Part shown: one piece after another, positions 24,711-46,574 of the stretch
Layout of the letters: every line of letters starts with the position of its first letter
Numbering within the stretch: the first letter of the stretch is position 1
Source of the DNA: an uncultured bacterium
GTDB lineage: Bacteria; UBP15; UBA6099; JAJRTR01
Assembly (NCBI GenBank): GCA_964595945.1
Contig: CAZQSL010000009.1
Coordinates: 1 to 49,903 of the forward strand
DNA length: 49,903 nt
Direction of reading: 5' to 3'
The notes under the pieces: generated by a model
Database searches by the model: none
What the model was told of the DNA's origin: nothing
What the model saw: only the letters and a program-made list of their open reading frames with translations
Translations under genes and position numbers: made by a program

Positions 24711-24786
24711 TCTGTCGCAGACAAATGTATTTTTGGCCGGATTACCGAATCCCGGCGAAACAAAATAACGGTCAAGAGTGATCACA

Positions 24787-27655: not shown

Positions 27656-27957
27656 TGGCTAAATACAGATTCATAAAAACTCCGACCCGCAACACCATAG
27701 AAATCATCAAGCGCCGGCTCGTAAGCCGTGACCGTGCCGACGAACTCGACTGGACGGCAGTCGGCCTTGTGCAATGCAGTGTGGCCGACATCATCTACGC
27801 ATCCGATGTTGCCGAAAAAACTTCCGATATAATCGCGCTCGAACTCTCCGGCACATGCCCGCAGCACATCACCACTCTTGCGTTGTTCGGCGAAACGGCG
27901 GCGGTCGACGCGGCGCTCGAATCAGTCAAACGCGCTCTCGCCGAGACCGAATGCTGA
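27655..27957 (+). CDS. Circularly permuted BMC shell protein (EutS/PduU type)
   Basis: About 100 aa with a permuted BMC fold. TAATG overlap with pduL. Confidence 0.8.
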   Translation: MAKYRFIKTPTRNTIEIIKRRLVSRDRADELDWTAVGLVQCSVADIIYASDVAEKTSDIIALELSGTCPQHITTLALFGETAAVDAALESVKRALAETEC

Positions 27958-27995
27958 CACGGTGAAACATATATAAAGGATTAAGGTGGGAATCA

Positions 27996-29875: not shown

Positions 29876-30207
29876 TGAAAAATGACGACTCACACAGGTG
29901 CGATATGGGAAAACTTATTACGAAAAAAGAGATTGTAGAAGCAAACGCGAAACACTTTTCGGAACTCGAAGTGCCATGCGACGCCATCATCACCCCACTT
30001 GCGCAGGATGCCGCGAAACAATATGGCATCGAGATCGTAAAGTCGGGCGGCCCAAGCCGCGCGTGTGACGTACGCTCGCTTCAGGGCGGAGCGGTCGATG
30101 AGGCGGCCATCGAGAAAATCGCGCGCATGGCAATAAGCGACCTCGGTGATAAAGCCGACCTCGAAACGGTCATCCGCATTGTCGAAAAAGTCGTCAGGAA
30201 AATGTAG
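29875..30207 (+). CDS. Small BMC-operon protein homologous to the N-terminal domain of EutT (ITPLAQD motif) with an amphipathic C-terminal helix
   Basis: ATGA overlap with pduT; the start could instead be the ATG at 29905 after an AGGTG. Motif EVPCDAIITPLAQDAAKQYGIEIV parallels EutT QVAITEGTLVTPSARDFARQAGITVTV. The C-terminal DLETVIRIVEKVVRKM resembles the EutE tail [14 protein letters not shown]. Confidence 0.6.
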   Translation: MKNDDSHRCDMGKLITKKEIVEANAKHFSELEVPCDAIITPLAQDAAKQYGIEIVKSGGPSRACDVRSLQGGAVDEAAIEKIARMAISDLGDKADLETVIRIVEKVVRKM

Positions 30208-30838: not shown

Positions 30839-31699
30839 TTAAGGTGTAGGAAGGGTTCGTTTTTTGCGGGGATGTTTTTTGGAGGTTTCCCAGGGTCTTG
30901 TTAACATTCTGGCAATGGTGCCCAGGAAGAAGAGTATTCCGCCTGAAATAATGATATCGATGCCTGGATTTCGCACAACGCGCACCCAGGGTATCTGTTT
31001 TGCCGGAGCTTGTTTAGAGCCGGGTTTGAGGTGTGCGATGCCTGAGGTGTCGCGCCTCGAATTAAGCGAAAACAGGTAACCGCCAGAACGTACTGTCGTC
31101 TTGTATCCGATGGTGATATTCTTGCCGTTGAATGCTCCTCCGGCCAGTGTGAATGTGGCTTCGTCGACAGTCATGCCGGATTTAGGGTGCATATCATTTT
31201 TTATACCGGTGCATTTCATCGAGAAAGGTACTTTTTCGCTTTTGTATGTTATTCCGGGTTCTATATCGTATGCAACCTTGCATCCTGTCGACGAACTGAT
31301 GAGGTGGCCTGTAAGGATTGTGACGTAGGCGAGGTGCATCAATAAAACCGAAATCTTTGCGGCGATCTGACGATTGCCAGCCTTCTTTTTCATCATTGCC
31401 GTCAAGATGACAACGTCATTGATCAGACATGCTGTCAGATTGGCGCCAAGCGCTGCCGCGATGATGCACAATGCCGCGAGCCAGCCGCGGAGGAAGGCGC
31501 TTTCTGGAGTACCATACAGCATCCATTCAAAGAGTACCCGTTCGTTCATTTCGTTGATCTGTGGTATGAATTTCGGATAGACAAGCAGCAGCACGATCAT
31601 CCAAAAGGCTATCAGGAGAGAGAGCGCGCAAAAAAGATTGGTCGAACACAGTGTGTCCCACACGGTTTCGATAGCGCTTTTTTTCTTTTTGTCTGCCAT
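30839..31699 (-). CDS. Short ResB/CcsB-like cytochrome c biogenesis protein (system II)
   Basis: N-terminal WDTLCSTNLFCALSLLIAFWMIVLLLVYP resembles the ResB TM1. Conserved TM histidines (HLAYVTILTGH). C-terminal TM. The ATG at 31699 overlaps the ccsA end by 19 nt. Confidence 0.55.
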   Translation of the reverse strand: MADKKKKSAIETVWDTLCSTNLFCALSLLIAFWMIVLLLVYPKFIPQINEMNERVLFEWMLYGTPESAFLRGWLAALCIIAAALGANLTACLINDVVILTAMMKKKAGNRQIAAKISVLLMHLAYVTILTGHLISSSTGCKVAYDIEPGITYKSEKVPFSMKCTGIKNDMHPKSGMTVDEATFTLAGGAFNGKNITIGYKTTVRSGGYLFSLNSRRDTSGIAHLKPGSKQAPAKQIPWVRVVRNPGIDIIISGGILFFLGTIARMLTRPWETSKKHPRKKRTLPTP

Positions 31700-31716
31700 G
31701 CTTCTGATGACCGCCG

Positions 31717-32322
31717 TCAAAATGACATCATATATCCAAGATAAGCTGGTGTTACGATGAATTCGTAGTAGACAGTCCACAAAACAATGATCGAAAACCC
31801 GGCGGTGCCGAGCGCTGCCATCGTTTTTTCAGGCATTTTCACACTACCTGGCACGTGAAGAATGCTTGCATAGAAAATCCACACTACCGCGCTGAACACA
31901 TGACTCGATCCCCATACCCACAGATCACCCCACCCTCCGGTCAATGCCCATGCTGCTCCGAATGCCTGGCTTGCCGAATAGATCACAAAGCCGGCAAGCG
32001 CTGTTTTGTATATCATGCCGGTTGGCTTGCAACCGTCCGGAGATCCCTTGCGGGGATTTGCGAGATGTGATATCGAAAGACTGAAAAGGTATGCAAACAC
32101 GGCATAGGACAGTGATACGAGGTAGCCGAACATAACGGAATTGAAGCTGAACGCAAATGCCATTTCCGGCTGCAAACTGGTGTTTCCCGATGCAGTCAAT
32201 CTGAAAAGGGAAAAGAACAGAATGATTGCAAGAGATATTGCGGCAGGTGTTTTTGTCTGATTTCTATCCACGGCCAGGACGAGTACAATCGCGAGAAAAA
32301 AAGCCCGCGACAGAGAATTCAT
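31717..32322 (-). CDS. ccsA: CcsA/ResC-like cytochrome c-type biogenesis protein (WWD domain)
   Basis: Trp-rich segment WALTGGWGDLWVWGSS followed by the conserved ILH histidine. Confidence 0.6.
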   Translation of the reverse strand: MNSLSRAFFLAIVLVLAVDRNQTKTPAAISLAIILFFSLFRLTASGNTSLQPEMAFAFSFNSVMFGYLVSLSYAVFAYLFSLSISHLANPRKGSPDGCKPTGMIYKTALAGFVIYSASQAFGAAWALTGGWGDLWVWGSSHVFSAVVWIFYASILHVPGSVKMPEKTMAALGTAGFSIIVLWTVYYEFIVTPAYLGYMMSF

Positions 32323-32334
32323 CAATTCATAGTC

Positions 32335-32592
32335 TCACGGGAAATTGCGAGTAATGGCCATTGTCGCAAACATAAGGGTGTCAAGCGCTATCCCGCCGGC
32401 AGCGAATGCGCGCGCGTGTCTGTTTGCCTCTTTGTGATCGGTCTTGATGAGGCAAATAAACAGGCCGCACCCGTACAGTGCAACCGCTGTCCACATGAGT
32501 GCATATATCAGAAGCGAATAGTCCACGCAATCACCTGTCCCGTGACATAGCAAATGAATTCTACCCAACTCGTTATGAATGGTCAAGCGCAA
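32335..32592 (-). pseudogene. Two-TM membrane ORF in the same frame as ccsA, separated only by a TGA: possible disrupted N-terminal part of ccsA, or a separate small gene
   Basis: Same reading frame. A single stop codon lies 4 codons before the ccsA start. Confidence 0.3.
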
Positions 32593-32607
32593 CGAATATT
32601 CGCTGTG

Positions 32608-33519
32608 TCATTTTTCAGCCGGGTTAAACTCATCCCACCCGAAAAACTCGATGTAGCGGCTCCAGACCCCCGTGCAGACCGGATCGAACCGGCACCGTGA
32701 GCATTGATCGCGTTTTTCACGGCCTTCGAGTACTGGCTGAGAATAGTTTGCCGAGCGGTCGTCCTTGATCGAATATATCTCCATTGTGCCGATATTGGAA
32801 AGGATGGGCATCGCCGTGCATAGCGGTGTATCATTGAGGGAAATTTTTGAGAGCACTTCAGCAGGTATAGGCTTGATCGCGGATACAATCTCCGTATATG
32901 GCACGAGCAGACGGCTGTTGTCGGCTCGTCCTATCGGCATCAGGGGATTCAGGATAATTGTGTTTATGGGAAAAGCGGACAACTGGTGGCAGTCTGTCGC
33001 AAGGCCATCGATGTTGGGTCTGCACACGACACGGCTCACGTGGAGCTCGAAGTGGTATTTTGAACGTAGCGCGCAAAGGTTGCTGAATCCCGCGAAAGCC
33101 TGTATGAAACCGCCAGGCGAGCGAGTGAGTCGGTCGTGGAGTTCAGGGCGCAGGCTGTGGAGTGAAATCACTATTTCAGTCACTCCCGCGCCTGTGATAC
33201 GTTCGGCGAGATCGCGATAGAACAGCATGCGGCCATTAGTGACAATACTGACGGAGTGGTAGCCAATTTGGCGGGCGAGCGTTATATATTCCGGGAGTTT
33301 CGGATTGAGAGTTGGTTCGCCTGATGTGAAGACGACCTTGCCAAGTCCGATATTCGCTGCGAGTATGGAGCGTACGTTTTCATCTGTCACGAATACCTGT
33401 CTCGCCGCTCTGCCTTCGCGGTCGCCTTCGCAGCAAAAGATGCAGTTGTTGTTGCATGCGGTTCCTATCGCGATGTGAAGGGTGCGAAGTGGATTGTAGT
33501 CTGTCAGTGAGTCGTTCAT
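32608..33519 (-). CDS. Radical SAM enzyme with C-terminal SPASM/twitch-like Cys cluster
   Basis: CNNNCIFC (CxxxCxxC) motif. GEPTLNP motif. C-terminal CSRCRFDPVC (Cx2Cx5C). GAGGG RBS before the ATG at 33519. Confidence 0.8.
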   Translation of the reverse strand: MNDSLTDYNPLRTLHIAIGTACNNNCIFCCEGDREGRAARQVFVTDENVRSILAANIGLGKVVFTSGEPTLNPKLPEYITLARQIGYHSVSIVTNGRMLFYRDLAERITGAGVTEIVISLHSLRPELHDRLTRSPGGFIQAFAGFSNLCALRSKYHFELHVSRVVCRPNIDGLATDCHQLSAFPINTIILNPLMPIGRADNSRLLVPYTEIVSAIKPIPAEVLSKISLNDTPLCTAMPILSNIGTMEIYSIKDDRSANYSQPVLEGREKRDQCSRCRFDPVCTGVWSRYIEFFGWDEFNPAEK

Positions 33520-33532
33520 ATGCGCAACGCCC

Positions 33533-34801
33533 TCATTCGTGCGGCCCATATTCCGTAATATCCCTGATGACGTCAAGGAGTTGAGCTTTGTTACTGGCGT
33601 GCGGGCAGTTGTCTGCGCCGGCAATGACGTTTCCAATGGTTATCACTGCCGATCTGTCAGTCTTGATGGGAGCGATCGCTCCGGGTGACCGTATGTCAGT
33701 AACGCAAATGTTGTAATCGTTTGCGTCGTGCGTGGAAATGCTGTCTCTCTCTGCCGTGACATTGTTGATGCCGAAACTGCTGATGAAATCCCGATACTCC
33801 GAAAGGCTTCCGGGAGAGGCTTCGAAAAAAAGTATTTTTGGTGTGGTACGCCGCCGTGCTTTGCAGGTATCCCAGTGAAGAATGAATGGATTATATCCGG
33901 CCGTTGTATCCTCCGGGGTCAATGCCCTGACAATACTGCCTCCCCTGGATATGATAAGAGCGCCATCGCTTATCGTCAGTTTGTCGCCTTCAGAAATCAT
34001 TTCGCGCAGACGGCCACTGTCTTTGAGCGACGAGAGGTCAGCGGAAGTCACTTTCCCATAACGGATCGCGCGGCCATCCGATTCGCCGTCAAAGCCCATT
34101 ATCGCGCCGTGTTTCCAGTACAGGAGCGGAGCGCGTTTCGCCTCGGCGAGTGAAAGAGCAAATTGAGGCGCCTCGTTGAGGATGGATTTTTCGACGCGAC
34201 GTGCGAGTTCCAGTGATGCTTCGCAATTAAAGGAGCATGGGCTGTGGAGCACATAGGGAAACGGCATAAATCTGTTGAGCCGCGAATCCGGTATGCCGAA
34301 TGTGGAAAAATGTGGGAAGAGCATGTGCGCTGTCTGGTGGATAAGGTCAGGGAGGGCCTGATACGCTTCGATGCAGCACTTGGGATAGCCGAGAAGTGCG
34401 CCGATGCGGCCAGTGGCTTCCCGCCGCTTTGCGCCTGAAGAGTTTTTTTCCACATCGTCCCATCTGGCGGCTTCTTCGGCGAGGGCCTTGTCACGGCTGA
34501 TAAACATCCACACCATTGCGTCGCGCGCGGAAGAGGGACCGGTGATCAGTCCGTTATTACCGAAAGAATACGATGATGAAGGCGACACGACATGCAGTCC
34601 GCCGGCTCTCATCATGCGGGATATGCTCCGGCAAGTCTGCATCGTGATGTTGGACAGCCGCCATACGGGTTTCAGGCCTTGTTCAAACAGGATGAATTCC
34701 GCTGGTTCGATAACCGGGCGTCCATTTTTTCCGGTACGTGTGGCGATTTCGAGGATTTCCCCAAGCGCAAGATTCATACTCGCGTCCATCCACACCGGCA
34801 T
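33533..34801 (-). CDS. Uncharacterised 422-aa protein with conserved Cys motifs (GYPKCC ... CSFNC), coupled to the radical SAM gene
   Basis: Long ORF on the operon strand. No family recognised with confidence. Confidence 0.6.
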   Translation of the reverse strand: MPVWMDASMNLALGEILEIATRTGKNGRPVIEPAEFILFEQGLKPVWRLSNITMQTCRSISRMMRAGGLHVVSPSSSYSFGNNGLITGPSSARDAMVWMFISRDKALAEEAARWDDVEKNSSGAKRREATGRIGALLGYPKCCIEAYQALPDLIHQTAHMLFPHFSTFGIPDSRLNRFMPFPYVLHSPCSFNCEASLELARRVEKSILNEAPQFALSLAEAKRAPLLYWKHGAIMGFDGESDGRAIRYGKVTSADLSSLKDSGRLREMISEGDKLTISDGALIISRGGSIVRALTPEDTTAGYNPFILHWDTCKARRRTTPKILFFEASPGSLSEYRDFISSFGINNVTAERDSISTHDANDYNICVTDIRSPGAIAPIKTDRSAVITIGNVIAGADNCPHASNKAQLLDVIRDITEYGPHE

Positions 34802-34843: not shown

Positions 34844-36157
34844 TTATACATGGAAGTCAAGTTTGAAGACTCTGATGTTTTCAAAGTGTGAGAGGATACT
34901 CCTGAGATTGACCATGATGGACGATTTTTCAGCGCGGTCGATGGATATTGTCAGGAGGGCGGTTTCAATGCGGTGGATGGCGTCACGATATTGCTGCTCG
35001 GTTTCCAACTGAAGTTCTTTCAGCCCGAGAGCGCTTGCGCGAAAGTCGGGGAATTCGACTGAGAAAGCCGATTCCTGCCCGCTACCGATCAAAACCGTTC
35101 GTTGATTGGTTTCGTAGAGGTGCTCGCTGCGGGAGAAAAATCTGTCGAAAATAGATTCGCCGAGTATCGTCATGACTTCGTCCATGGGAGAGATGTCATA
35201 GTTGATATAACGGCCTCCAGTGGCGGTGGCGATCTGGTCGAACGCGCCATGCGGCAGGCGTGAGAGTTGGGCGTATGTACTGACAGGGTAGAGGACAGCG
35301 CCGGATTCCCGGAGCCTGGCGGCAGCGAGGTCACGGGTTTCGCCATAGTCGTCGGTTGTGTCGGATGCAGTAAACAGTACGACGGCTTTTGCCGCTGAGT
35401 CACGCCAGGCGTGATCGGATGAAGACTCGATTATAGCGTTGAGCGCATTTTTCGACATGCCGGCGAAGTATAGTGTCTCTATGTCTTCGATGAATTGAGC
35501 GGCGTCACGGCGTGCTTCTCCGACCGGCTGCGAGTCGTACTCGTAGGTTTGGAGCAAGTAGCGGACATCGAGGCCATGTCCGCTGAGTGTCTTGTGGAGT
35601 ATGTGAAAATGACGGACGAATTCTGTAACATCTTTTTTCATTTGCCTGCTGCGGTCTATTATGAAAAGCACATCGAGATCGCCGGATGCAGAGTCGGATT
35701 CCCGCTGAGGCATTATGCGTAATATTGGGGCGAGGAGCGGAACGGCTCTGTGTCGCGAAGTGACTGCGATAGCGTCGATACGGTCTGCGAGGGCGCGAAG
35801 TTCTTTTTTGATGGCATCCCTGCGCGAACTTGATATGGCAATGCCGTCGAGACTGTATTGCATACGGAGTATCAGATGGACAATCTCGTCGAGCGCCGAG
35901 TCGCGCACCGCGAAAATGTCGATGTCTTCATAGACGTTGCTCAGTACGTCTTCAGCCGCGTGAATCTCTTCGCGGAGTCCGGCGAGGTGCTCACGCCCGA
36001 GTTGCACTTCGATGGGCAAGCGGTCGCGCCGTCTGATATGGGGCAGCGGTTTTTCGGGACGGTCCGCACGCGTCCTTTTTCGTACCAATCTTTCGATGAT
36101 AGCGGGATTGACCACTATCGCCGGGAACTGGGTAGTTGTATGATTGCTTATCGGCAT
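34844..36157 (-). CDS. Cytoplasmic VWA-like domain protein (degenerate MIDAS DRSRQ)
   Basis: Long ORF with a VWA-like central segment (LFIIDRSRQM...LFTASDTTDD). Start ambiguous (ATG 36157 or GTG 36175). Confidence 0.5.
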   Translation of the reverse strand: MPISNHTTTQFPAIVVNPAIIERLVRKRTRADRPEKPLPHIRRRDRLPIEVQLGREHLAGLREEIHAAEDVLSNVYEDIDIFAVRDSALDEIVHLILRMQYSLDGIAISSSRRDAIKKELRALADRIDAIAVTSRHRAVPLLAPILRIMPQRESDSASGDLDVLFIIDRSRQMKKDVTEFVRHFHILHKTLSGHGLDVRYLLQTYEYDSQPVGEARRDAAQFIEDIETLYFAGMSKNALNAIIESSSDHAWRDSAAKAVVLFTASDTTDDYGETRDLAAARLRESGAVLYPVSTYAQLSRLPHGAFDQIATATGGRYINYDISPMDEVMTILGESIFDRFFSRSEHLYETNQRTVLIGSGQESAFSVEFPDFRASALGLKELQLETEQQYRDAIHRIETALLTISIDRAEKSSIMVNLRSILSHFENIRVFKLDFHV

Positions 36158-36279
36158 TCTGCTGAGTGCATCCACGGTTTGTTTTCTCGGTCGGTGTTGC
36201 CGGCTTATAATATGGAGCCGCTATTTATGTATTATATCATTTTACAATGCCTGATGCTCTTAATCAATGCAGTGTTGTT

Positions 36280-37389
36280 CTAAAGTGAAATCCTCCATGT
36301 GACAAACTGAAAAAAAACATATAGCTGCATGGCAAATGAAATGACGATGAGTGTAATGCCACTCCAGTTGCCGCCTTTGAGTGAAGCCAGTCCCATATAG
36401 ATCGGGAATGCCACAAGGACATATCTCGGCACACCATACAGCTTGGTCGCGCTCATGCTCACGAGGACAGTCGACAAGGCATATATGCCGGCTCCGCTTC
36501 CGAAGCCGGTCCACGCGACGACTGAAAGCACTATTGCCATGAGCGACACCGACACGTCGAATCTCGTCAAAAAATTCTGAGGCATGGTTATCTCGTAAGC
36601 CAGGGAGAAAAGGGGGGATGTCAGTCCGTGTCCCCAGTGTTTCTGAGCGGAAAAATATGCGGACGGATCGCCGGTCAGATGATATAGATATGCAAAATAT
36701 ATGAGGATGCCGGCTGGTACTGCCGCCAGCCAGAAAAAATCTGTCCTTGTCGATCGGAAATTCCATTTTCTGGCAGCAAGATACATCACGGCGAGTGCGG
36801 GCAGTAGCAGTACTCCTGACAGGCGGCAAGCCGATGCCGCCATCGCGCAAAGCGATGCTTTGGCTGTGCTGCCTTTCAGCATCGCTCTGTAGGAAAACAT
36901 TGCGAGCATTGTGAAAAGAGATTCGCTGTAGACTGCTGAAAAAATGAACGCTGTTGGAAACGCAGTCATAAATCCTACTGCGATGAGGGCCTTGTCATCT
37001 CCGTATCCGTGCAGCCTGACTATGTCGTGCAGCAAAAGCATCGATATCAGAAAACATATATTCGACACTATCAGTCCGGCGGACAGCAAGTTGCCCGTGA
37101 GTTTCGATATGGCCGCAATGGCGAGTGGGTAGAGTGGAAAAATAGTCACATTGGACTGTGAATCACCGCGATACGAATACCCCTCGCGTACAACCTGTGT
37201 GAACCATAATGCGTCCCAGCGGCGCCATGGTTCGAAAAATCTGTTTTCGATCTGTGTATAGCCATGCCACATCGCTGACTCCGCCGGAGGTCCGGAAGGA
37301 TGGTGGTCAGCGATCCACACGGCAAACCCAAAAATCACAACACGGGTCACTACGAAAGCTGTCAGGATGATTTTTAGACTGCGGGACAT
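36280..37389 (-). CDS. GT-C fold membrane glycosyltransferase, PIG-V/Gpi18-like mannosyltransferase family (DUF2029-like)
   Basis: WDALWFTQVVREGY motif and about 9 TM helices. The ATG overlaps the pilC stop (TAATG). Confidence 0.7.
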   Translation of the reverse strand: MSRSLKIILTAFVVTRVVIFGFAVWIADHHPSGPPAESAMWHGYTQIENRFFEPWRRWDALWFTQVVREGYSYRGDSQSNVTIFPLYPLAIAAISKLTGNLLSAGLIVSNICFLISMLLLHDIVRLHGYGDDKALIAVGFMTAFPTAFIFSAVYSESLFTMLAMFSYRAMLKGSTAKASLCAMAASACRLSGVLLLPALAVMYLAARKWNFRSTRTDFFWLAAVPAGILIYFAYLYHLTGDPSAYFSAQKHWGHGLTSPLFSLAYEITMPQNFLTRFDVSVSLMAIVLSVVAWTGFGSGAGIYALSTVLVSMSATKLYGVPRYVLVAFPIYMGLASLKGGNWSGITLIVISFAMQLYVFFQFVTWRISL

Positions 37390-38609
37390 TATTTTGGAGC
37401 CATGACAATGTTGAAGATCGGCAGATACATGGCGATCGCGATGAATCCGACAACGAGGGCGACAAAGATCGTCACGAGAGGCTCAATGTAGAGAAGCAGG
37501 CGTTTCGTGTAATATTCGATTTCCTTTTCGAGCGCCCCCGAACAGGTGCCGAGCAGGTCGGCCAGCCGGCCACTGTGCTCTCCCGCTGAGATCATATAGA
37601 CGACAAGTGGCGGGAAATACTGGGACAGTCTGAGTGCGGATGACATGTTGCCGCCTGTTTCTACGGTTTCGATCATCTTGTCGACGTCCAGTTCGATGAG
37701 ATGGTTGTCAAGCACTCCTTTTGCAGTGTCGAGGGCTGACAGCAGTGGTACGCCGCAATATATCATCGAACTCATCGTCCTTGTGAATCTCGAAACAAGG
37801 ATTCTCTTGTACAGTTGAGCGTAGATTGGTATTTTCAGATAAAGCCTGTTGGTTATGAGTTTGCCCTGTGCGGTGTATTTCAGAAAATACACGATCGCAA
37901 AAATACCCAAGACTATAGCTATGTCGAATTGCCATTCATGCGCGATAAAATTGCTTGTGTTTACCATTATCTGAGTGATTTTCGGGAGTTGGAACGACGA
38001 TCCCGGGCCACCTTGGGATTCGTAAAACTTAGAAATCTTCGGGATGGCGAAAACCATCAGGAATGCTACCGCAAAAGCCGCGATGGTAAGAACTATTTTG
38101 GGATAGATGAAAGCGCCTTTGAGCGAACGTCTGAGATCGTGGTCCTTTTCCATGTAAGTGCTGAGCCTGATGAGGACTTCGGCGAGGTTTCCCGCGGATT
38201 CGCCCGAACGTATCATGCTGATGAAATAGTGCTCGAAGACCTTCGGGTGTTTTTCGAAGGCTGATGACAGCGACATGCCGTGCTCGACATCTTCACGTAT
38301 TTTTTTGATGACTTTTTTCAGGGTAAAATTGCCGGTCTGCTCTTCAAGCGCGGCGAGTGCGTCGACTGCCGGGAGCCCGGCGTCGATAACTACGCTGAGC
38401 AGCTTTGCGAAAACTACTTTGTCCTCATTTGTGATACGTTGCGGGAGCAGTGGCGCATCTTCGGAAACTTCTGTCTGTTCCGTTACGGCGAGCACTACAT
38501 AGCCGAGTTTCTGCAGTCTGAAATAAACGGATTGCTCCGTGGCTCCATAGAGACTGCCACGATAGTTGCGGCCATGCGAATCTTTTGCGACGAAGGTGAA
38601 ATGAGGCAT
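37389..38609 (-). CDS. pilC: Type IV pilus assembly platform protein PilC (GspF family)
   Basis: Two GspF domains. N-terminal MPHFTFVAKDSHG. The ORF-track start at 38978 is an Arg-rich upstream extension that would overlap pilB. Confidence 0.85.
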   Translation of the reverse strand: MPHFTFVAKDSHGRNYRGSLYGATEQSVYFRLQKLGYVVLAVTEQTEVSEDAPLLPQRITNEDKVVFAKLLSVVIDAGLPAVDALAALEEQTGNFTLKKVIKKIREDVEHGMSLSSAFEKHPKVFEHYFISMIRSGESAGNLAEVLIRLSTYMEKDHDLRRSLKGAFIYPKIVLTIAAFAVAFLMVFAIPKISKFYESQGGPGSSFQLPKITQIMVNTSNFIAHEWQFDIAIVLGIFAIVYFLKYTAQGKLITNRLYLKIPIYAQLYKRILVSRFTRTMSSMIYCGVPLLSALDTAKGVLDNHLIELDVDKMIETVETGGNMSSALRLSQYFPPLVVYMISAGEHSGRLADLLGTCSGALEKEIEYYTKRLLLYIEPLVTIFVALVVGFIAIAMYLPIFNIVMAPK

Positions 38610-38644
38610 GTCGATGAAGTGGCGGAAAAGGCCGCCATGCGGCA

Positions 38645-40348
38645 TCAGTCGATGTTGATGAAGACCGCTCTTCGCACCTCCTCTATTGTCGTGACGCCTT
38701 CGACGACTTTTCTGAACGCCGAATGCCGCAGGGTGCTCATGCCTTCTTCGACCGCCGCGTGACGGATGTGCGAGGCGTTTTCGCCACGCAGTATCATCTG
38801 CTGCACAGTGCCGGTAACGGCCATGACTTCGAATATTCCGATACGTCCGTGATAGCCCGTAAATCCGCAATATTTGCATCCGGCACCCTTGTATATGACT
38901 ACTTTGCCGGTTTTTTCGCTTCGCACGCCGAATTCCTTGAAGAGTTCCTGCACGTCCATCTTGTGTGGTTCTTTGCAATACGGGCAGATGACTCTCACGA
39001 GCCTCTGCGCGATGACGCCAATGACAGAGGCGGAGATAAGATATTCCTTGATACCCATTTCCTGGAGTCTCGAAATCGCGCCGGGGGCATTGGATGTGTG
39101 AAGCGTGCTGAATACAAGGTGGCCGGTCAGCGATGACTGGGTGGCTATCATGGATGTTTCCGAATCTCGGATTTCACCTATCATTATGATATTGGGGTCT
39201 TGCCTGAGGATGCTGCGCAGGCCGGTGGCGAAAGTCGCGCCGGTTGCAGTGTTGACCTGCGACTGGTTGATGCCGGGGAGTTTGTATTCGACAGGGTCTT
39301 CGATGGTCACGATGTTGGCGGCAGTTTTATTGAGACGATTGAGCACCGAGTACAGGGTAGTAGTTTTGCCGCATCCGGTCGGCCCCGTGACAAGTACCAT
39401 GCCGTAAGGTTTTTCGATAAGTTCCTTCACGATGCGCAAGTCATGGGAGTTGAATCCGAGACGCTCTATGTCGATGAGCATCGTATCCTTGCTGAGCAGT
39501 CTCATGACGACTTTTTCGCCGTTGATCGTGAGGTAGGTGGCGACACGGATATCGTACTCGCGCCCGGCTTTGCGGATGGCCATGTGGCCGTCCTGTGGAG
39601 CGCGTTTTTCGGTGATGTCCATATTGGCGAGTATTTTCACCCTCGAAACGATGGAAGCTTCGATATGGCGCGGTATCTGCATGACATCGCGCAATACTCC
39701 GTCAACCCTGTAGCGGACGCGTAGCTGTGATTCCTGTGGTTCGAGATGGATGTCAGACGCGCGCTCGTTTATAGCGCCTTCGATGATATCGACCACGAGC
39801 CTTACAACAGGCGGATTGTCGACCGTGTCGACGATGTCGTCGATGACCAGTTCCCCGCTTTTGAGCGGGATGTGATCTTCGACGTGCATGTCGATGATCG
39901 TCTGTTTTGTGCGGTTAGTAGTGCTGAAGAAATGATTGATGGCAAGGCTGATTTCGCGCTCCGTGGCAAAATGGATTCTCACCCTGTATCCGGTTGTCAG
40001 TTCTATTTCGTCGATGACGGTAAGATTGGTTGGCGGATACATGGCAATACTGATCTGGTCCGTATCGAGTTTGAATGGAAAAACATTGTACTGCCGCAGA
40101 AGTTCTTCTGGAAGAAGGTTGGGTATCTGTGGCTCGATGTTTTCCTCTTTGAGCTCGATGCGTTCGATGCCGAGCTGCTCGCCAAGTACGTCGACATAGG
40201 TTTCCTGCGTGATCATCCCGAGGTCGATCAGAGCGCGCCCGAGCGCGGTCGCCCCCGTACTCCTCGTCTGGCGGCGTGCCTTTGCAAGCTGTTCTTCTGT
40301 AATTTCAGTCTTTGTCTTCAGTATTTCAACAAAGCGCGCGCGTCCCAT
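38645..40348 (-). CDS. pilB: Type IV pilus/T2SS assembly ATPase PilB (GspE family) with MshEN-like N-terminal domain
   Basis: GSPII_E N-domain. Walker A LVTGPTGCGKTTT. Tetracysteine motif CPYCK...CKYCGFTGY. GGAAGGGG RBS. Confidence 0.9.
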   Translation of the reverse strand: MGRARFVEILKTKTEITEEQLAKARRQTRSTGATALGRALIDLGMITQETYVDVLGEQLGIERIELKEENIEPQIPNLLPEELLRQYNVFPFKLDTDQISIAMYPPTNLTVIDEIELTTGYRVRIHFATEREISLAINHFFSTTNRTKQTIIDMHVEDHIPLKSGELVIDDIVDTVDNPPVVRLVVDIIEGAINERASDIHLEPQESQLRVRYRVDGVLRDVMQIPRHIEASIVSRVKILANMDITEKRAPQDGHMAIRKAGREYDIRVATYLTINGEKVVMRLLSKDTMLIDIERLGFNSHDLRIVKELIEKPYGMVLVTGPTGCGKTTTLYSVLNRLNKTAANIVTIEDPVEYKLPGINQSQVNTATGATFATGLRSILRQDPNIIMIGEIRDSETSMIATQSSLTGHLVFSTLHTSNAPGAISRLQEMGIKEYLISASVIGVIAQRLVRVICPYCKEPHKMDVQELFKEFGVRSEKTGKVVIYKGAGCKYCGFTGYHGRIGIFEVMAVTGTVQQMILRGENASHIRHAAVEEGMSTLRHSAFRKVVEGVTTIEEVRRAVFINID

Positions 40349-40603
40349 AGGACGTCCCCTTCCGCAGCATGACAGGCCAAAAGGCAGCCTTAGCTGTTCT
40401 TCTTGATCAACTTTATAATACTATCCACAAGTTTTCAAACAATTTTTCAGTATTTTTTCCTGTCTATAGAAAACCGACGGATGCCATTCATTGTTTCAAG
40501 TCAGTATGGACATTGTCCGCGCCAGTGCCGGTCAGGCCAAAAACGGCACTGAAGTCCGATCTTATGTCAAGCGCCCCAAGCGAGACGATGGAAATGGTAG
40601 CGA

Positions 40604-42034
40604 TCATTCTTCATCTTCATCGAAATCATCTTCAGGTGGGAGGGAACCGTCCTTTTTCATATCGAAGAGTCCATATTTTTTCATCTTGTTGTGAAGGCTT
40701 TTTCGGGAAATCTTCAGATTCTCGGCAGTTTTCTTCCGGCTCCAGTCAGTATGATCAAGAGCGTTGATGATGATCTGGCGTTCCGCGACAGCAGCGATGC
40801 TGTCGACTATTTCGAGCAGGGATCCCTCGGAAGGCATTTCAGTATCGGAGTCCGCCGGACGCAGGATGTTAGGTGGCAGGCAGTCGTTGGAGACAACATC
40901 GCCAGTTGAGAGCAGTACGGCGCGTTCGATGGTGTTTTCGAGTTCGCGCACATTGCCGGGCCACTGGTATGTGAGGAAAGCGCTGTAGACACTTTGGGAA
41001 ATGCCTCTGACAGAACGATTGTATTTCTTGTTGGATTTTTCGATAAAGTGCTCGACAAGAGGCATGATATCGCCCTTGCGGTTACGCAGTGCCGGCATGA
41101 ATACCGGCATGACGTTGAGCCTGAAGTAAAGGTCTTCCCGAAAGAGCTTTTCCCTGACTGCAACAGACAAATCCTTGTTGGTCGCGGCGATGATGCGGAT
41201 GTCGACCTTGATAGTCTGGTTGCCGCCGACGCGTTCGATTTCGCGCTCTTCGAGCACACGGAGTATTTTAGCCTGCATCGCGAGAGTCATGTCTCCGATT
41301 TCATCCAAAAAGATCGTGCCGCCCGAAGCTTGCTCGAATTTGCCGATCTTGCGTCCTACGGCGCCGGTGAAGGCGCCTTTTTCATAGCCGAAGAGTTCGC
41401 TTTCGAGGAGGTTTTCGGGGATAGCCGCGCAATTGACTTTTATAAAAGGCCCGTCTTTGCGGTTACTGTTGTGCTGAATGAGACTTGCAATGACCTCCTT
41501 GCCGGTGCCGCTTTCGCCATATATGATGACAGTGATATCGCTGTTCATAACCTTTGTAACGAGGGTGAAAACGTCCTGCATTTCAGTGCTTTGCCCAATG
41601 ACTTCCTTGAAATGATGTTTTTCACGGAGCTTGTCTTTCAGTTGTGATATTTCGTCTTCCAGTTTGCGTTTTTCGAGAGCGCGTTTGACCACCACTCTCA
41701 TTTCATTGAGATCGAACGGTTTGTTGAAATAGTCGTAAGCGCCGATACGCATGGCATCGAGAGCAACTTCGCGAGAACCGTAGGCGGTCATCATAATGAC
41801 CGGGATATCTGGGCGAAGGCGTGAAATTTCTTCGAGCGCCCTGATGCCGTCCATCTTCGGCATTCGCATGTCGAGCAGCACGCAGGCGAATTCACTGCTT
41901 TTAACCTTGTCGACAGCTTCTTCCCCATTTTCCACCGTTGTTATGGAGTAGCCCTGCGTCGAGAGAGCCTCCGTGAGAAACATACGCATGTTGGGTTCGT
42001 CGTCTGCGACAAGGATGTTGTACGTATCAGTCAT
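40604..42034 (-). CDS. Sigma-54-dependent NtrC-family response regulator (REC-AAA+-HTH), PilR-like
   Basis: REC domain. GESGTGKE Walker A, GAFTGA and ESELFGYEKGAFTGA motifs. C-terminal Fis-type HTH. Acidic tail. Confidence 0.9.
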   Translation of the reverse strand: MTDTYNILVADDEPNMRMFLTEALSTQGYSITTVENGEEAVDKVKSSEFACVLLDMRMPKMDGIRALEEISRLRPDIPVIMMTAYGSREVALDAMRIGAYDYFNKPFDLNEMRVVVKRALEKRKLEDEISQLKDKLREKHHFKEVIGQSTEMQDVFTLVTKVMNSDITVIIYGESGTGKEVIASLIQHNSNRKDGPFIKVNCAAIPENLLESELFGYEKGAFTGAVGRKIGKFEQASGGTIFLDEIGDMTLAMQAKILRVLEEREIERVGGNQTIKVDIRIIAATNKDLSVAVREKLFREDLYFRLNVMPVFMPALRNRKGDIMPLVEHFIEKSNKKYNRSVRGISQSVYSAFLTYQWPGNVRELENTIERAVLLSTGDVVSNDCLPPNILRPADSDTEMPSEGSLLEIVDSIAAVAERQIIINALDHTDWSRKKTAENLKISRKSLHNKMKKYGLFDMKKDGSLPPEDDFDEDEE

Positions 42035-42037: not shown

Positions 42038-43549
42038 TCAAATATCTCCTGGCAATTCGTTTTTGTCCCTGACGGGTAGTGTCACGGAAAACACAGTCAG
42101 CACTCCCGGATCGCTTGTGACGGATATGCGTCCGCCCTGTGTTTCGATATTCTGCTTGGTGATGGCGAGGCCAAACCCCGCGCCGGTGTCTTTAGTGGTA
42201 AAAGCCGGGGTGAAAATGCGCGAGATGTTATCAGGTTTGATGCCGGGGCCAGAGTCGGTCACCGTGATGACGACAGAGCCCTTGTCACTGGCGCCGGAGT
42301 GAGGAGGGGTGAAATGTGACGCAACGCGTATTTCTCCGGAATAGTCGAGGGCCTGGGCGGCGTTGACGATGAGGTTGAGGATCGCTTGCATCAAGTTCTC
42401 CTCCTGGGTCAGGATGGCAGGCATATCAGGCTCGATATCTTCCATGATGGTGATATTTCTGTTTTTCATCTCGAAGCGTGCGAGACGCAGGATTTCGTTC
42501 ATAATCTCGTTGGCCGGTATCATGCGCCACTCTGATGCTGACGGCTGGATAAATCTGATCAGTCTGTCAAGCACATTGGATACCCGTTCGATGTCCCCCA
42601 TCATGATTTCCGAATAGTTGGCCAGTTGCAGATTTGACGCTGACTTGGTCCTCATATTTTCCACCGTCCGGCGGATTTCATTCAGCGGGGTCTGCACTTC
42701 GAGTCCGATATTGGTTGCAAGGCTGCCGAGCGATGTCAATCTGTCCACCACACGCATTCTTTCCTGTATGCGGCGCATGTGTGCGGCGTCGTCGAATGAT
42801 ACGATCAGGCCGATCAGGGTATTGTCGTGGTCGCGAAGAAAGGATGTGGAAATCGACACTGGCAGAGATTCTGCCATCACGTCGGTTTTGAGCCGCACTT
42901 CACGGCAAACGAAAGTCTTGCGTTCGTTGATAATGGCGCTCACCGTGTGGTGGAAATCCCTGTTGATGGGAATGTCGGGGATCAGATGCGAAAGTGGTTT
43001 GCCGATGTAATCGGCCGACTGGATGCCGAGAATGACTTCTGCGTCGCTGCTCATGGAAGTGATGATAGCGCCTTCGTCGATCGTCAGCACACCGCCCGAT
43101 ATGGTCTGGATGAGATATTGATTCATGGTGGTGATCATACTGTTGAATGCCTTGCCGACCATAGCGAGTTCGCCTTCACCCGCGAGCGGTATAGTGCGGG
43201 CGAGATCGCCGCTCGCGACGCTCGCGGTGCCGATCGTGATGCTGCGGAGCGGAGCCGTGATCGCAACCGAAAGAGCAAGGCCCGCTGTCATGGCAATCGC
43301 GCCTCCGAGCACTATCACTACGGTCGTGTGGCCTATCGTTTCCTGCACGTTCTGGCGGAATTCATTCATCGTGGAAGGAACACGCCTCTGAACGAGTTCA
43401 CGGTTGCCAATGTCTATCATGACAAGTCCGAGACCAAGCACTAGCAGCGTAGTCAGCACCGGGATAGCGATCATCAGGCGCAACCTGAAACTTTCCTTGA
43501 TTTGCAGTTGAGTATCGCTGTCGTTGTCAATCCTGTTGCGATCGTTCAT
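42038..43549 (-). CDS. Sensor histidine kinase (TM-HAMP-PAS-HisKA-HATPase), PilS/NtrB-like partner
   Basis: Stop lies 4 nt from the regulator start. H-box and G-boxes (DSGPGI, GAGFGL). Confidence 0.85.
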   Translation of the reverse strand: MNDRNRIDNDSDTQLQIKESFRLRLMIAIPVLTTLLVLGLGLVMIDIGNRELVQRRVPSTMNEFRQNVQETIGHTTVVIVLGGAIAMTAGLALSVAITAPLRSITIGTASVASGDLARTIPLAGEGELAMVGKAFNSMITTMNQYLIQTISGGVLTIDEGAIITSMSSDAEVILGIQSADYIGKPLSHLIPDIPINRDFHHTVSAIINERKTFVCREVRLKTDVMAESLPVSISTSFLRDHDNTLIGLIVSFDDAAHMRRIQERMRVVDRLTSLGSLATNIGLEVQTPLNEIRRTVENMRTKSASNLQLANYSEIMMGDIERVSNVLDRLIRFIQPSASEWRMIPANEIMNEILRLARFEMKNRNITIMEDIEPDMPAILTQEENLMQAILNLIVNAAQALDYSGEIRVASHFTPPHSGASDKGSVVITVTDSGPGIKPDNISRIFTPAFTTKDTGAGFGLAITKQNIETQGGRISVTSDPGVLTVFSVTLPVRDKNELPGDI

Positions 43550-43579: not shown

Positions 43580-43978
43580 TTATCGTACCTTTAGGTTTCG
43601 CTTGACTTTGTCGAGCAGAATGTTCGGCGCAAACGGTTTGGACATAAAGTCGTTGGCGCCGAGCGTAAGCGCCTTCTGGATGTCACTTTTTTCCGATCGT
43701 GACGTGAGCATCATGATCGGGACAGTCTTGGTGCGTTTGTCATTGCGAAGCTTTGCGATCACCTCAAACCCGTCAGCGCCAGGCATCATTATATCGAGGA
43801 TCACAAGTTGCGGAGGTTTTTTACATGCCCGCTCTACGGCCTCGATGCCGTTTCGCGCACAATCCACGTCAAAACCCGCATGCTTGAGGCGCGCTTCGAG
43901 TATCGTAAGCATGTTTTCCTCATCGTCAACGATGAGTATCCGCTTTTTCAACAACATGGGCATTCGGTCATCCGGCAT
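43580..43978 (-). CDS. Single-domain CheY-like response regulator
   Basis: ILIVDDEENM...D...MPGADG...K receiver motifs. The start may be M6 or M8. Confidence 0.75.
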   Translation of the reverse strand: MPDDRMPMLLKKRILIVDDEENMLTILEARLKHAGFDVDCARNGIEAVERACKKPPQLVILDIMMPGADGFEVIAKLRNDKRTKTVPIMMLTSRSEKSDIQKALTLGANDFMSKPFAPNILLDKVKRNLKVR

Positions 43979-44327: not shown

Positions 44328-46574
44328 GTGAGACAGACAATCATTGGGCTAATAATTGTTTTGGCGGCAATAATTGCTCCGGCTGGAGCGCATGCCGCAG
44401 GGTTTATCGTACCGCTCCCCACCACTGATCCTGCTCCTGCTCCAAACCGGGTGAAATTCGACATCAGTTATCAGCACATCGCCGTTTCGATCACAGAGGC
44501 GGCGGCGCGCACAACCATCGAGCAGACAATCGTCAACCGAACGCTCCGGCCGGTAGAAGGATGGTATGTCTTTCCAGTCCCCGAGGGCGCGGCCGTCAGC
44601 AAATTTTCCCTTTTCGTCAACGATATGGAAATTGCCGGTGAAATCCTTGATCGTGATAAGGCCAGGAGTATCTATGAAGATATCGTGCGCCGCGCACAGG
44701 ATCCCGCACTGCTCGAGTTGGCCGGCAAAGGCATTTTTCGCGCACGCATATTTCCCATCGAAGCCGGGGGCTCCCGCAAAATCAAGCTTTCCTATGTTTC
44801 CACTCTCCCATCCACAGGCGGAGCATGGCACTACAACTGCCCCATCAAGTCTCCTCAGTACTCAGGCGGAGTTACTGAAACTGCCATCACGGTCAACCTG
44901 TCGTCAAAATTCCCCCTTCGCAATATCTACTCTCCCTCTCATATCATTCGCACAAGCCGGTCCGGCAAAAACTCCGCAACCATCTCGGTCACGGAAAAAG
45001 ACAATATGCCATCTGCCGATTTCGATCTGTTTTTCGACACGAGCCGCGAAGGCATGGGCCTCTCACTCCTGACATATTTCCCGCGCCGCGAAGACGGCTA
45101 CTTCATGTTACTCGCATCTCCAGGCCTGCGCGAAGACCCTGACACGATCACACCCAAAGATATTGTATTTGTCTTCGACCGCACGGGCAGCATGAGCGGC
45201 AGCAAAATGGAACAGGCAAGAAACGCTCTCGTCTACTGCCTCCGTTCACTCAACAAAAACGACAGATTCAACGTCATAACCTTCAATGAATCCCCCTCAC
45301 CCATATTCAATCAACTACGTATCGCGTCATCGTCAAACATCAGAGAAGCCGTCGAAGAAGTCTCGGACATGCAGGCCGCGGGTGGCACCAACATCAATGA
45401 CGCCCTCACCAGCGCATACAAAATGCTCGATCCGCAAAACAGGCGTCCCTCATATATCATATTTCTCACGGACGGACTCCCCACCGCCGGCATTACCAGC
45501 ATCGCCGACATCATATCCAATGTCACAAAAGCTGCCCGCAAAGTCAACGCAAGAATATTCACGTTCGGCGTAGGGTACGACGTCAACACGCTGCTCCTCG
45601 ATACCCTCACGGAACGCGTCGGCGGGTATGGCGCTTATGTCCGCCCGGAAGAAGATATCGAAGTGAAAGTCAGCGATCTGTTCCGCATGGTCAACAACCC
45701 TGTCCTGACCGGGCCGGAAATCGACTTCGGCGGACTCGCCCCTTACGACATCACTCCCGCAAAGTATCCTGACATCTACAGCGGCACCAACCTCATCATC
45801 ACGGGCCGGCTCAAACACAACATCCCTTCGACAATCATCATCGAAGGTGCCGAGACAGGCCACCAGCGCAAGTATCTGTACACCTATGCGCCCGAAGACT
45901 CCAGCGGCCAGTCGGACTTCATCCCCACCATCTGGGCCGCGCGGCGCATCGGCACTCTCATCAAGGAGATTCAGATCAACGGATCGAACACCGAGCTTGT
46001 CGAAGAAATCGTCCGCCTCAGCAAACGATATGGCATAGTCACCGAATACACATCGTTCCTCGCTCGCGAAGATGTCCGAATCGATACATACTCCATTCAG
46101 CAGATGACTGCAAGCGCGGACCGGACCATGAATGAAGCACAAAAGGAAAAATCTGGCAAGGCCTCGGTCAGCAGAAGCATCGCCAACAACGCAATGCAAA
46201 TGGCCGACAACACAGCCGCCATCGGCAAGGGCTATGGTGCCAGCCCAGACTCAGCGCAGCCATCTTCAGCTCCTGTGAAACCCGATGCTCATCCCGTCCC
46301 CGCATCACTTGTCATGGCCGGAGCCCGTGCTTTCAAGCATGCGGACAATCGCTGGATAGACACCAATGTCGATGCCTCCACCAGGATCATCGAAATCAAA
46401 TCCTTCAGTGACGCCATGTTGGAACTCATCACAAAACTACCCGAACTCCGCGAATGCGCAGCAATAGGCGACGACGTAACCATCCTTGTCATCCCCGGAT
46501 ACGCCGTCAGATTCCACGGCGCCGGCGCGACGAAACTCAACGGTGAAATATCCGATAGCCTTCAGTTGAAATGA
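44328..46574 (+). CDS. Secreted VIT domain plus von Willebrand factor A domain protein
   Basis: Signal peptide. VIT N-domain. VWA MIDAS DRTGSMSG. GTG start after AGGAGGA RBS. Confidence 0.8.
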   Translation: MRQTIIGLIIVLAAIIAPAGAHAAGFIVPLPTTDPAPAPNRVKFDISYQHIAVSITEAAARTTIEQTIVNRTLRPVEGWYVFPVPEGAAVSKFSLFVNDMEIAGEILDRDKARSIYEDIVRRAQDPALLELAGKGIFRARIFPIEAGGSRKIKLSYVSTLPSTGGAWHYNCPIKSPQYSGGVTETAITVNLSSKFPLRNIYSPSHIIRTSRSGKNSATISVTEKDNMPSADFDLFFDTSREGMGLSLLTYFPRREDGYFMLLASPGLREDPDTITPKDIVFVFDRTGSMSGSKMEQARNALVYCLRSLNKNDRFNVITFNESPSPIFNQLRIASSSNIREAVEEVSDMQAAGGTNINDALTSAYKMLDPQNRRPSYIIFLTDGLPTAGITSIADIISNVTKAARKVNARIFTFGVGYDVNTLLLDTLTERVGGYGAYVRPEEDIEVKVSDLFRMVNNPVLTGPEIDFGGLAPYDITPAKYPDIYSGTNLIITGRLKHNIPSTIIIEGAETGHQRKYLYTYAPEDSSGQSDFIPTIWAARRIGTLIKEIQINGSNTELVEEIVRLSKRYGIVTEYTSFLAREDVRIDTYSIQQMTASADRTMNEAQKEKSGKASVSRSIANNAMQMADNTAAIGKGYGASPDSAQPSSAPVKPDAHPVPASLVMAGARAFKHADNRWIDTNVDASTRIIEIKSFSDAMLELITKLPELRECAAIGDDVTILVIPGYAVRFHGAGATKLNGEISDSLQLK

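Follow-up and report, generated by a model that had tools for sequence, protein, structure and literature searches.

A PIG-V-like GT-C glycosyltransferase gene overlapping pilC at the variable end of a control-and-motor module for type IV pili from an uncultured bacterium

The pilin-glycosylating membrane enzymes TfpO/PilO and PglL transfer an oligosaccharide that has been assembled beforehand, and they carry a Wzy_C domain, which is O-antigen ligase-like. TfpO has been grouped with the PglL-type oligosaccharyltransferases; its gene adjoins pilA, while pglL is unlinked to pilE (10.1101/2020.04.19.049825). The only GT-C precedent for pilin modification is TfpW, the pilin arabinosyltransferase of Pseudomonas aeruginosa group IV, a 646-aa enzyme predicted to cross the membrane through 11 helices and bearing a large TPR domain on the periplasmic side, whose gene lies immediately downstream of pilA and for which the D-Araf donor genes are known (10.1101/2020.04.19.049825). 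Other GT-C enzymes relevant here are PIG-V/Gpi18 (GT76), the GPI and ALG mannosyltransferases, the mycobacterial PimE/GT87 polyprenyl-phosphate-mannose transferases, and ArnT. The pilus motor genes of Myxococcus and Geobacter stand in pilB-pilT-pilC-pilS-pilR-pilA clusters.

In the 49.9-kb stretch of DNA analysed here (the window), from an uncultured bacterial lineage, a gene for a GT-C enzyme directly follows pilB and pilC. The features of the locus, in the order of transcription, are:

43580-43978, minus strand: single-domain response regulator, first of a five-gene module (Response_reg, 107.6 bits)
42038-43549, minus strand: sensor histidine kinase (HAMP-PAS-HATPase; Pfam), analogous to PilS
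40604-42034, minus strand: sigma54-dependent response regulator (REC, Sigma54_activat, HTH_8; Pfam), analogous to PilR
40349-40603, minus strand: 255-bp intergenic region upstream of pilB, with a sigma70-like site at 40438-40410 (promoter scan)
38645-40348, minus strand: PilB-like extension ATPase, 567 aa (MshEN, 65.8 bits; T2SSE, 434 bits)
37389-38609, minus strand: PilC/GspF-like platform protein, 406 aa (two T2SSF stretches, 195 bits)
37387-37391, minus strand: TAATG junction of the pilC stop TAA and the GT-C start ATG (sequence)
36280-37389, minus strand: compact GT-C-fold glycosyltransferase, PIG-V-like (PF04188), 369 aa
36176-36279, minus strand: AT-rich 104-bp gap 3' of the GT-C stop, with a sigma70-like site at 36267-36239 (sequence, promoter scan)

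The identities proposed for pilB, pilC and the PIG-V-like GT-C gene in the initial annotation were right and have Pfam support. The pilB-pilC pair closes, at the 3' end, a module of five genes (response regulator, histidine kinase, sigma54 activator, PilB and PilC) that would serve as type IV pilus control and motor. As in Myxococcus and Geobacter, genes for a sensor kinase and a sigma54-dependent activator accompany those for PilB and PilC, and pilins follow in relatives; unlike in those clusters, the regulators precede pilB-pilC, pilT is missing, the kinase is of the HAMP-PAS type and, in the window, the GT-C gene stands in place of the pilins. PilB combines a T2SSE ATPase with an N-terminal MshEN/GSPII domain, and its translation contains Walker A (GPTGCGKTT), Walker B (DPNIIMIGEIRD) and tetracysteine (CPYC...CKYC) motifs. 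It scored 588.8 bits against the NCBIfam equivalog TIGR02538, under the cutoff of 675.65, and nearly the same against the GspE model (578 bits, cutoff 630.25); its assignment to a pilus was made because pilin arrays follow pilC in orthologous loci. PilC has the two T2SSF domains of a PilC/GspF platform protein and fell below all equivalog cutoffs (GspF, 315 bits; PilC models, 267-269 bits).

The pilC stop codon ends on the A at 37389, and the GT-C ATG begins on this same base (minus-strand sequence ...ccaaaaTAATGtcccgc...). No start lies further upstream in the GT-C ORF, and orthologues have N-termini that line up with this ATG. The TAATG overlap described in the initial annotation is real, and it is statistically unremarkable, since overlaps of 1 and 4 bases are common among co-directional bacterial genes. 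The overlap makes a single mRNA probable, so that the GT-C is likely co-transcribed with pilC and would be translated from the pilC message, probably via termination-reinitiation; no promoter was visible between the two genes. On the other side of the GT-C gene, the 104-bp gap is the likely boundary to the next transcription unit, with no terminator-like site found in it on the minus strand. As a counterpoint to the comparisons that follow, the overlap and the promoterless junction favour co-expression with the pilus motor, the usual hint of shared function.

The surroundings of pilC were compared in seven other contexts and the window, a small sample with several members on short contigs. The pilB-pilC pair is kept in all seven, and the complete order of response regulator, histidine kinase, sigma54 response regulator, PilB and PilC is found in four (L015/16, L017-19, a JGI contig and L024/25), the remaining three contexts beginning at pilB. 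Across L015-L019, identities were 62-67% for PilB, 64% for the sigma54 activator, 49-52% for the histidine kinase and 49-51% for PilC; response regulator orthologues (35-50% identity) occupy the same position there, and a response-regulator gene is also found there in L024. What follows pilC varies. Tandem short pilins, three to six genes directly after pilC, were found in four of the seven (L015/16, L020/21, L022 and L023), a convergent unrelated gene (TPP-enzyme or BNR) in two (L017-19 and the JGI contig) and a Gfo/Idh/MocA oxidoreductase in one (L024/25). None of the seven has a GT-C gene at this position, so the placement after pilC, called atypical in the initial annotation, is indeed seen in the window alone. 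The site 3' of pilC is a variable junction in this lineage, often taken by a pilin array, sometimes the end of the cluster, and here holding the GT-C gene.

The window contains no genes for pilins, PilMNOPQ, PilT or PilD across its 49.9 kb, which bears out the earlier report that the structural genes are absent nearby. A six-frame scan of the window for prepilin motifs gave nothing credible, and tblastn of the window with 15 pilins from the related loci gave a best E-value of 0.06. Nearly all window ORFs were scanned with Pfam, which identified GH31, GDPD, Mfd, GH57, UvrB, M14, AraC, decarboxylase, amidohydrolase and EamA proteins, together with a hybrid kinase, an ethanolamine microcompartment locus, a VIT-VWA protein, TetR and FGGY. 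With three to six pilins following pilC in four related loci and none in the window, the pilins must lie elsewhere, as had been proposed.

A search for GT-C loci run with the five closest sequences recovered no more than 3 loci from genomes and 5 from metagenomes; the lineage is thus rare. In all, 12 other homologue loci were compared with the window, again a small sample with several on short contigs. Neither pilB nor pilC was found in any of the 12, including those of all four orthologues (42-49% identity). An orthologue precedes dus, a tRNA-modification gene, in L001 and L005; another follows PBP1A (L002), and the fourth follows an unrelated membrane-protein gene (L004) in the MAG GCA_024278215.1. 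The orthologue in L001 overlaps dus by TGATG, and overlaps therefore imply no shared function in this family. Distant homologues lie beside DegT and GT2 genes (L011) or PBP1A, MscS and YkuD genes (L013), which are envelope and polysaccharide contexts. The sole pilus-type exception among the GT-C loci is a PilT-like ATPase in L005, 3 kb from the GT-C gene and on the opposite strand. In GCA_024278215.1, pilB-pilC-pilins are on contig 25 and the GT-C orthologue is on contig 13. The pilins are followed by the end of contig 25, and the start of contig 13 lies just ahead of the GT-C gene; the two contigs share no sequence overlap, adjacency through an assembly gap seems unlikely, and the gene upstream of this GT-C has a terminal transmembrane tail unlike PilC or a pilin.

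Of the 8 pilC contexts and 13 GT-C contexts, counting the window, only the window therefore has this GT-C gene next to pilC. The initial annotation had proposed a pilin-glycosylation system and named GT-C homologues lacking a pilus association as a finding that would speak against it. Such homologues were looked for and are present in the 12 other loci; likewise, all seven other pilB-pilC contexts lack the GT-C gene, and the proposal is largely unsupported. Because related genomes keep pilB-pilC and the GT-C gene apart, little ties this enzyme to pilus glycosylation, and the locus is a rather ordinary one. With a probability of roughly 0.6, the GT-C is a general envelope-glycoconjugate enzyme, an envelope glycosyltransferase at a variable operon end and no dedicated pilus component.

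The protein itself scored 32.2 bits against PF04188 (Mannosyl_trans2, PIG-V; Pfam cutoff 22.4), a match confined to positions 45-197 of the 443 in the model, roughly a third of it, and PF04188 is present in most homologues. A profile search of PDB sequences returned no match, and fold comparison was used instead; it places the protein as a multi-pass membrane protein with the GT-C fold, having ALG, PMT, STT3 and ArnT-type GT-C enzymes as structural neighbours at an identity of 9-14% to PIG-V/Gpi18 (GT76) and the GPI/ALG mannosyltransferases. The model is an all-helical membrane core with no soluble domain. W58-D59, part of an RWD motif, is invariant in an alignment of 23 homologues and is placed by the model after the first transmembrane helix (3-29), at the start of a loop helix (59-69), so that Asp59 provides the conserved acidic residue of the first extracytoplasmic loop that is characteristic of the superfamily. 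At 369 aa the enzyme resembles in size the glycolipid- and glycan-acting GT-Cs among the fold matches (ALG3, 385 residues; GPI-MT1, 407; PimE, 383), the protein-acting ones being larger (PglB, 707; AglB, 793; Pmt, 690-731). It differs from TfpO/PilO and PglL in that Wzy_C was not found in Pfam at E <= 0.01, and from PimE/GT87 and ArnT in lacking a significant GT87 match in Pfam and any phosphatidylinositol-mannoside or lipid A context around its gene. We know of no GPI-anchor pathway in bacteria, and the acceptor must therefore differ from that of PIG-V.

As an envelope glycosyltransferase, the GT-C would work on the outer side of the inner membrane and draw its sugar from a polyprenyl-phosphate carrier, with Asp59 in the first periplasmic loop acting as the catalytic base by analogy with solved GT-C enzymes, and the recipient would be an envelope glycolipid or glycan. 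We infer both the donor type and the acceptor type. Pfam scans of the window found no gene for making the donor, a GT2 of GtrB or Dpm1 type, and the three-component arrangement of the GtrA/GtrB/GtrC type, with a GT2 polyprenyl-phosphate sugar synthase and a small flippase beside the GT-C, is likewise absent from the window.

A different, and unlikely, explanation is that the GT-C glycosylates a pilin or another pilus component and is made together with PilB and PilC, moving sugars from a polyprenyl-phosphate donor onto prepilins or pilins that are still unassembled in the inner membrane, as TfpW does but from a PIG-V-like family. Until they are assembled, pilins sit in the inner membrane and expose their globular part to the periplasm, where they could be reached by a GT-C without a large soluble domain; the TAATG coupling to pilC, the GT-C fold and the intact loop-1 Asp fit such a role. 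Other glycan-related genes also occur near orthologous pilus clusters, in L024, with its sugar-type oxidoreductase gene after pilC, and in L022, where another GT-C (PMT_2-like, 24.8 bits, cutoff 26.1) and a Wzx-like flippase gene lie upstream of pilB, and glycan genes may recur near this cluster. TfpW is a precedent, being likewise a GT-C-superfamily membrane enzyme encoded in a pilus gene cluster and bearing an acidic motif in a periplasmic loop (10.1101/2020.04.19.049825). It differs from the window enzyme in size, domains and position: at 369 aa and of a different Pfam family, the latter has neither the TPR domain nor the length of about 646 aa, and its gene follows pilC, not a major pilin. 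Against a pilus role are also the confinement of the adjacency to the window, the separate contigs in GCA_024278215.1, the comparable overlap with dus, the missing pilin, the lack of a TPR or other acceptor-binding soluble domain (Pfam and model) and the absence of donor-synthesis genes nearby. Somewhat less likely still is the specific case of a dedicated pilin-modifying PIG-V-like GT-C, co-translated with PilB and PilC, that moved into the motor operon while the pilin genes were relocated; type IV pilin glycosylation would then have recruited a GT-C a second time, independently of TfpW and without its TPR domain. If the enzyme did modify pilins, it would represent a new and very small enzyme class in bacterial protein glycosylation and a simple glycoengineering tool.

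The genes 3' of the GT-C encode a flagellin-derived VWA protein, a DUF483 protein, an HxsC4-like radical SAM enzyme and CcsB-like membrane proteins; a word-index search with the flagellin-like VWA protein returned only its self-match. It is quite improbable that the GT-C works with these genes, glycosylating or helping to mature a product of their cluster. They share its strand at a spacing of 104 bp, with no terminator-like site between, and encode secreted or membrane proteins; however, homologues of these genes occur in no GT-C locus, absence of the cluster having already been seen in five loci, and a sigma70-like site lies within the gap. Flagellin-type proteins exit via the flagellar export channel, whereas GT-C enzymes act at the periplasmic face, which this route bypasses.

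The adjacency is known from one place only, a MAG contig with a single record, as would be expected if the pilC/GT-C junction were a chimeric fusion of two unrelated regions. Such an assembly artefact is hardly credible, given that neither ORF is broken and the two meet in an exact overlap of one base, and that the GT-C gene has a GC of 0.506 and a GC3 of 0.565, inside the range of the window's genes. A recent horizontal insertion of the GT-C gene was also considered and ruled out, its base composition being typical of the window.

The main value of the comparison with related genomes is cautionary, in that a stop-start overlap with a pilus gene is insufficient for inferring pilus function. 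The comparison also delineates, for an uncultured lineage, a module of pilus control and motor genes whose 3' junction is variable and usually holds tandem short pilins.

Several minor observations concern the regulation of the module and its proteins. Rfam searches of the window and of the surroundings of the locus returned no RNA, riboswitches included. The sigma54 promoter consensus matched the window 39 times, fewer than the shuffle mean of 52, and no convincing -24/-12 element was found upstream of pilB; sigma54-like promoters are present at the relatives' pilin genes in L015 and L020. Binding of c-di-GMP by the PilB N-domain, raised in the initial annotation, now appears a weak proposition. 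Strict and relaxed forms of the 24-residue MshEN motif have been described (PMC5013675), and neither was found in PilB. Residues 35-58 (ALGRALIDLGMITQETYVDVLGEQ) are the sole fitting copy, and only when position 1 (Arg in the motif, here Ala) is ignored; the first copy of the tandem motif is absent, the score against NF053729 is 31.1 bits, under the cutoff of 38, and the pattern in PilB orthologues is the same or worse. The NCBI call for PilC is 418 aa, and its ATG (alternative start 38645) overlaps the pilB stop as TGATG; PilC orthologues align from the 406-aa start, and they form a clade at 42-53% identity, the next homologues being at most 37% identical.

The initial annotation placed pilB, pilC and the gene of a PIG-V-like membrane glycosyltransferase (GT-C) next to one another; open reading frames and Pfam confirm this and put all three on the minus strand. 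Together with three regulatory genes upstream of pilB, they are arranged as follows.

36280-37389, minus strand: GT-C, 369 aa; PF04188 (PIG-V mannosyltransferase family), 32.2 bits
37389-38609, minus strand: PilC, 406 aa; T2SSF in two stretches, 195 bits (Pfam)
38645-40348, minus strand: PilB, 567 aa; T2SSE 434 bits, MshEN 65.8 bits (Pfam)
40604-42034, minus strand: sigma54-dependent response regulator (Pfam), upstream of pilB
42038-43549, minus strand: HAMP-PAS histidine kinase (Pfam), upstream of pilB
43580-43978, minus strand: single-domain response regulator, upstream of pilB

The reading we favor, with a probability of about 0.6, is that a pilus control-and-motor module would end here with a GT-C gene at a lineage-variable junction, and that the GT-C would be a general glycosyltransferase of the periplasmic face, with an envelope glycolipid or glycan as its acceptor. 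At the junction, which reads ccaaaaTAATGtcccgc on the minus strand, base 37389 belongs both to the stop codon of pilC and to the start codon of the GT-C gene; the overlap reported earlier is thus present in the sequence, and because of it pilC and the GT-C gene are likely co-transcribed. An assembly chimera is very unlikely to explain their adjacency, as the two reading frames meet in this one-base overlap and the composition of the GT-C gene is typical of the window. In the public annotation, pilC is 12 codons longer at its 5' end and begins with an ATG overlapping the stop of pilB (TGATG); orthologues favor the shorter, 406-aa form.

A 255-bp gap separates the three regulatory genes from pilB. 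No Pfam match to HisKA was found in the kinase at E <= 0.01, unlike its orthologues in the related loci L015-L019 and L024, in which HisKA is present. Clusters of pilB, pilC, pilS, pilR and pilA are known from Myxococcus and Geobacter; the content of the window locus is similar, but the gene order is different. Within the window, no convincing sigma54-like -24/-12 element was seen and no Rfam family was matched.

Relatives of PilC form a distinct clade at 42-53% identity, beyond which identity falls to <=37%, and seven other genomic contexts, all from this clade, were compared. The order response regulator, histidine kinase, sigma54 activator, PilB, PilC is kept in four of the seven (L015/16, L017-19, one JGI contig and L024/25), with identities in L015-L019 of 62-67% for PilB, 64% for the activator, 49-52% for the kinase and 49-51% for PilC. 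In L015/16, L020/21, L022 and L023, pilC is directly followed by three to six tandem, near-identical short pilins (114-148 aa) with a GFTLIE or GFTLLE prepilin motif, at these positions.

L015 11692-14579: pilin array
L020 5769-6964: pilin array
L022 9584-11656: pilin array
L023 9440-11453: pilin array

In both L015 and L020, a sigma54-like -24/-12 element lies ahead of the first pilin gene, which fits a PilR-like role of the activator. Elsewhere, the gene 3' of pilC is a convergent TPP-enzyme gene (L017-19), a convergent BNR gene (the JGI contig) or a Gfo/Idh/MocA oxidoreductase gene on the same strand (L024/25; L024 8468-9607). A GT-C gene follows pilC in none of the seven, and tblastn found none in the flanks of the six contexts with DNA sequence. 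Because the genes after pilC differ in this way, its 3' side is a variable junction, occupied by a GT-C gene in the window only, among the contexts compared. The pilB-pilC-GT-C arrangement is unique among them, and its components are of known kinds.

The exact GT-C sequence is recorded for this contig only; a protein search gave four orthologues at 43-49% identity (42-49% over the orthologous loci), after which identity falls to <=36%. In two metagenome-assembled genomes (MAGs), the orthologue is followed by dus, encoding tRNA-dihydrouridine synthase (L001 10001-12123, L005 7610-9840). It is divergent from a PHP-domain gene in L001/L003, where its stop overlaps the dus start (TGATG), while in L005 a GH39-like protein and, 3 kb away, a PilT-like ATPase are encoded upstream on the opposite strand. 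In L004 the orthologue lies 3' of an unrelated membrane-protein gene, with a stop-to-start spacing of one base, and in L002 it follows PBP1A. Distant homologues were found beside DegT and GT2 genes (L011), beside PBP1A, MscS, HAD and YkuD genes (L013), and amid unrelated genes (L014, L006-L010). A class A penicillin-binding protein gene adjoins GT-C in two distantly related loci (L002 7792-11039, L013 4951-9338), and an MscS channel is encoded on each of these contigs as well, which may hint at a role related to the cell wall. In MAG GCA_024278215.1, the GT-C orthologue is on contig 13 (L004) and pilB-pilC with five pilins on contig 25 (L022); the ends of the two contigs have no common sequence.

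An association of the GT-C with pilus genes was not borne out: homologues of PilB or PilC occur in none of the 12 other GT-C loci, a modest sample in which several loci are short, and this is the outcome that the initial annotation had itself named as refuting. It is unlikely that the GT-C glycosylates pilins, even though pilin glycosyltransferases unlinked to pilin genes exist (10.1101/2020.04.19.049825) and, in L022 and L024, glycan-related genes are close to the orthologous pilus cluster. L022 (798-4015, minus strand) encodes, upstream of pilB and on the other strand, a 587-aa PMT_2-like GT-C (24.8 bits; cutoff 26.1, narrowly missed) together with a Wzx-like flippase; these genes are a better candidate for pilus-linked glycosylation than the PIG-V-like enzyme.

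The window enzyme belongs to the GT-C superfamily and, weakly, to PF04188, its sole Pfam match (cutoff 22.4; about one third of the model covered). GT-C enzymes have their catalytic acid in the loop that follows transmembrane helix 1. In a confident AlphaFold2 model (mean pLDDT 92.1), for which 23 homologues were aligned, this loop contains Trp58-Asp59, which are invariant in the alignment of these homologues, as are Glu156, Arg189 and Arg322. The protein is membrane core throughout. It has no soluble domain, in contrast to PglB, AglB, STT3 and Pmt, the protein-modifying GT-C enzymes among the matches, and its size is similar to that of ALG3, GPI-MT1 and PimE, which act on lipid-linked glycans or glycolipids. 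These features are suggestive, not decisive, of a lipid-linked glycan or glycolipid acceptor. No donor-synthesis gene was found in the window. TfpW, a pilin-modifying GT-C enzyme, has 646 aa and a soluble TPR domain (10.1101/2020.04.19.049825); the window enzyme has no such domain, and a TfpW-type identity was rejected, as was one of the TfpO/PglL type (pilin O-oligosaccharyltransferases).

The reported absence of other pilus genes nearby holds for the window: Pfam scans of essentially every open reading frame found no pilin, PilD, PilMNOPQ or PilT, a six-frame scan for the prepilin motif gave nothing credible, and a tblastn search with 15 pilins of the related loci had a best E-value of 0.06. 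An MshEN-like, possibly c-di-GMP-binding motif had also been proposed for PilB. The MshEN receptor consists of two 24-residue motifs with a five-residue linker, for which a relaxed pattern is also given (PMC5013675). Neither the strict nor the relaxed pattern occurs in the window PilB, in which there is no first motif copy and residues 35-58 fit the motif only if the first position is ignored (Arg in the motif, Ala here); two orthologues fit equally or more poorly, and the NCBIfam motif model gave 31.1 bits (cutoff 38). The MshEN fold is present, but canonical c-di-GMP binding is not supported.

On the downstream side, the GT-C gene is followed by an AT-rich 104-bp gap with a sigma70-like site, and beyond it by genes for a 443-aa VWA protein, a DUF483 protein, an HxsC4-related radical SAM enzyme, a CcsB-like protein and further membrane proteins. 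A functional tie of the GT-C to this downstream cluster is very improbable, as the GT-C loci have no homologues of it. The genes at 30839-34801 (minus strand) encode the DUF483 protein, the radical SAM enzyme (218 bits to the rare HxsC4 type, under the cutoff of 500), an 85-aa open reading frame, the CcsB-like protein and a 313-aa membrane protein; no member has a homologue in any compared locus. The 443-aa protein (34844-36175, minus strand) is a degenerate flagellin whose variable region is replaced by a VWA domain. Pfam matched VWA alone, and NCBIfam gave a weak flagellin C-terminal match alone. A full HMMER search found about nine full-length relatives at 29-41% identity; more distant relatives have 470-500 aa, and all six scanned with Pfam are Flagellin_N-VWA-Flagellin_C. 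The 443-aa protein seems to have lost its N-terminal D0-like part. The gene at 44328-46574 (plus strand), divergent from the pilus module's response-regulator gene, encodes a 748-aa VIT-VWA protein similar to the 'marine proteobacterial sortase target' (278 bits, under the cutoff of 551.65). An ethanolamine-utilization microcompartment locus is found at 21806-30207 (plus strand), with EutB, EutC, BMC shell proteins, aldehyde dehydrogenase, cobalamin adenosyltransferase, phosphotransacylase and an RnfC/Nuo51-like flavoprotein.
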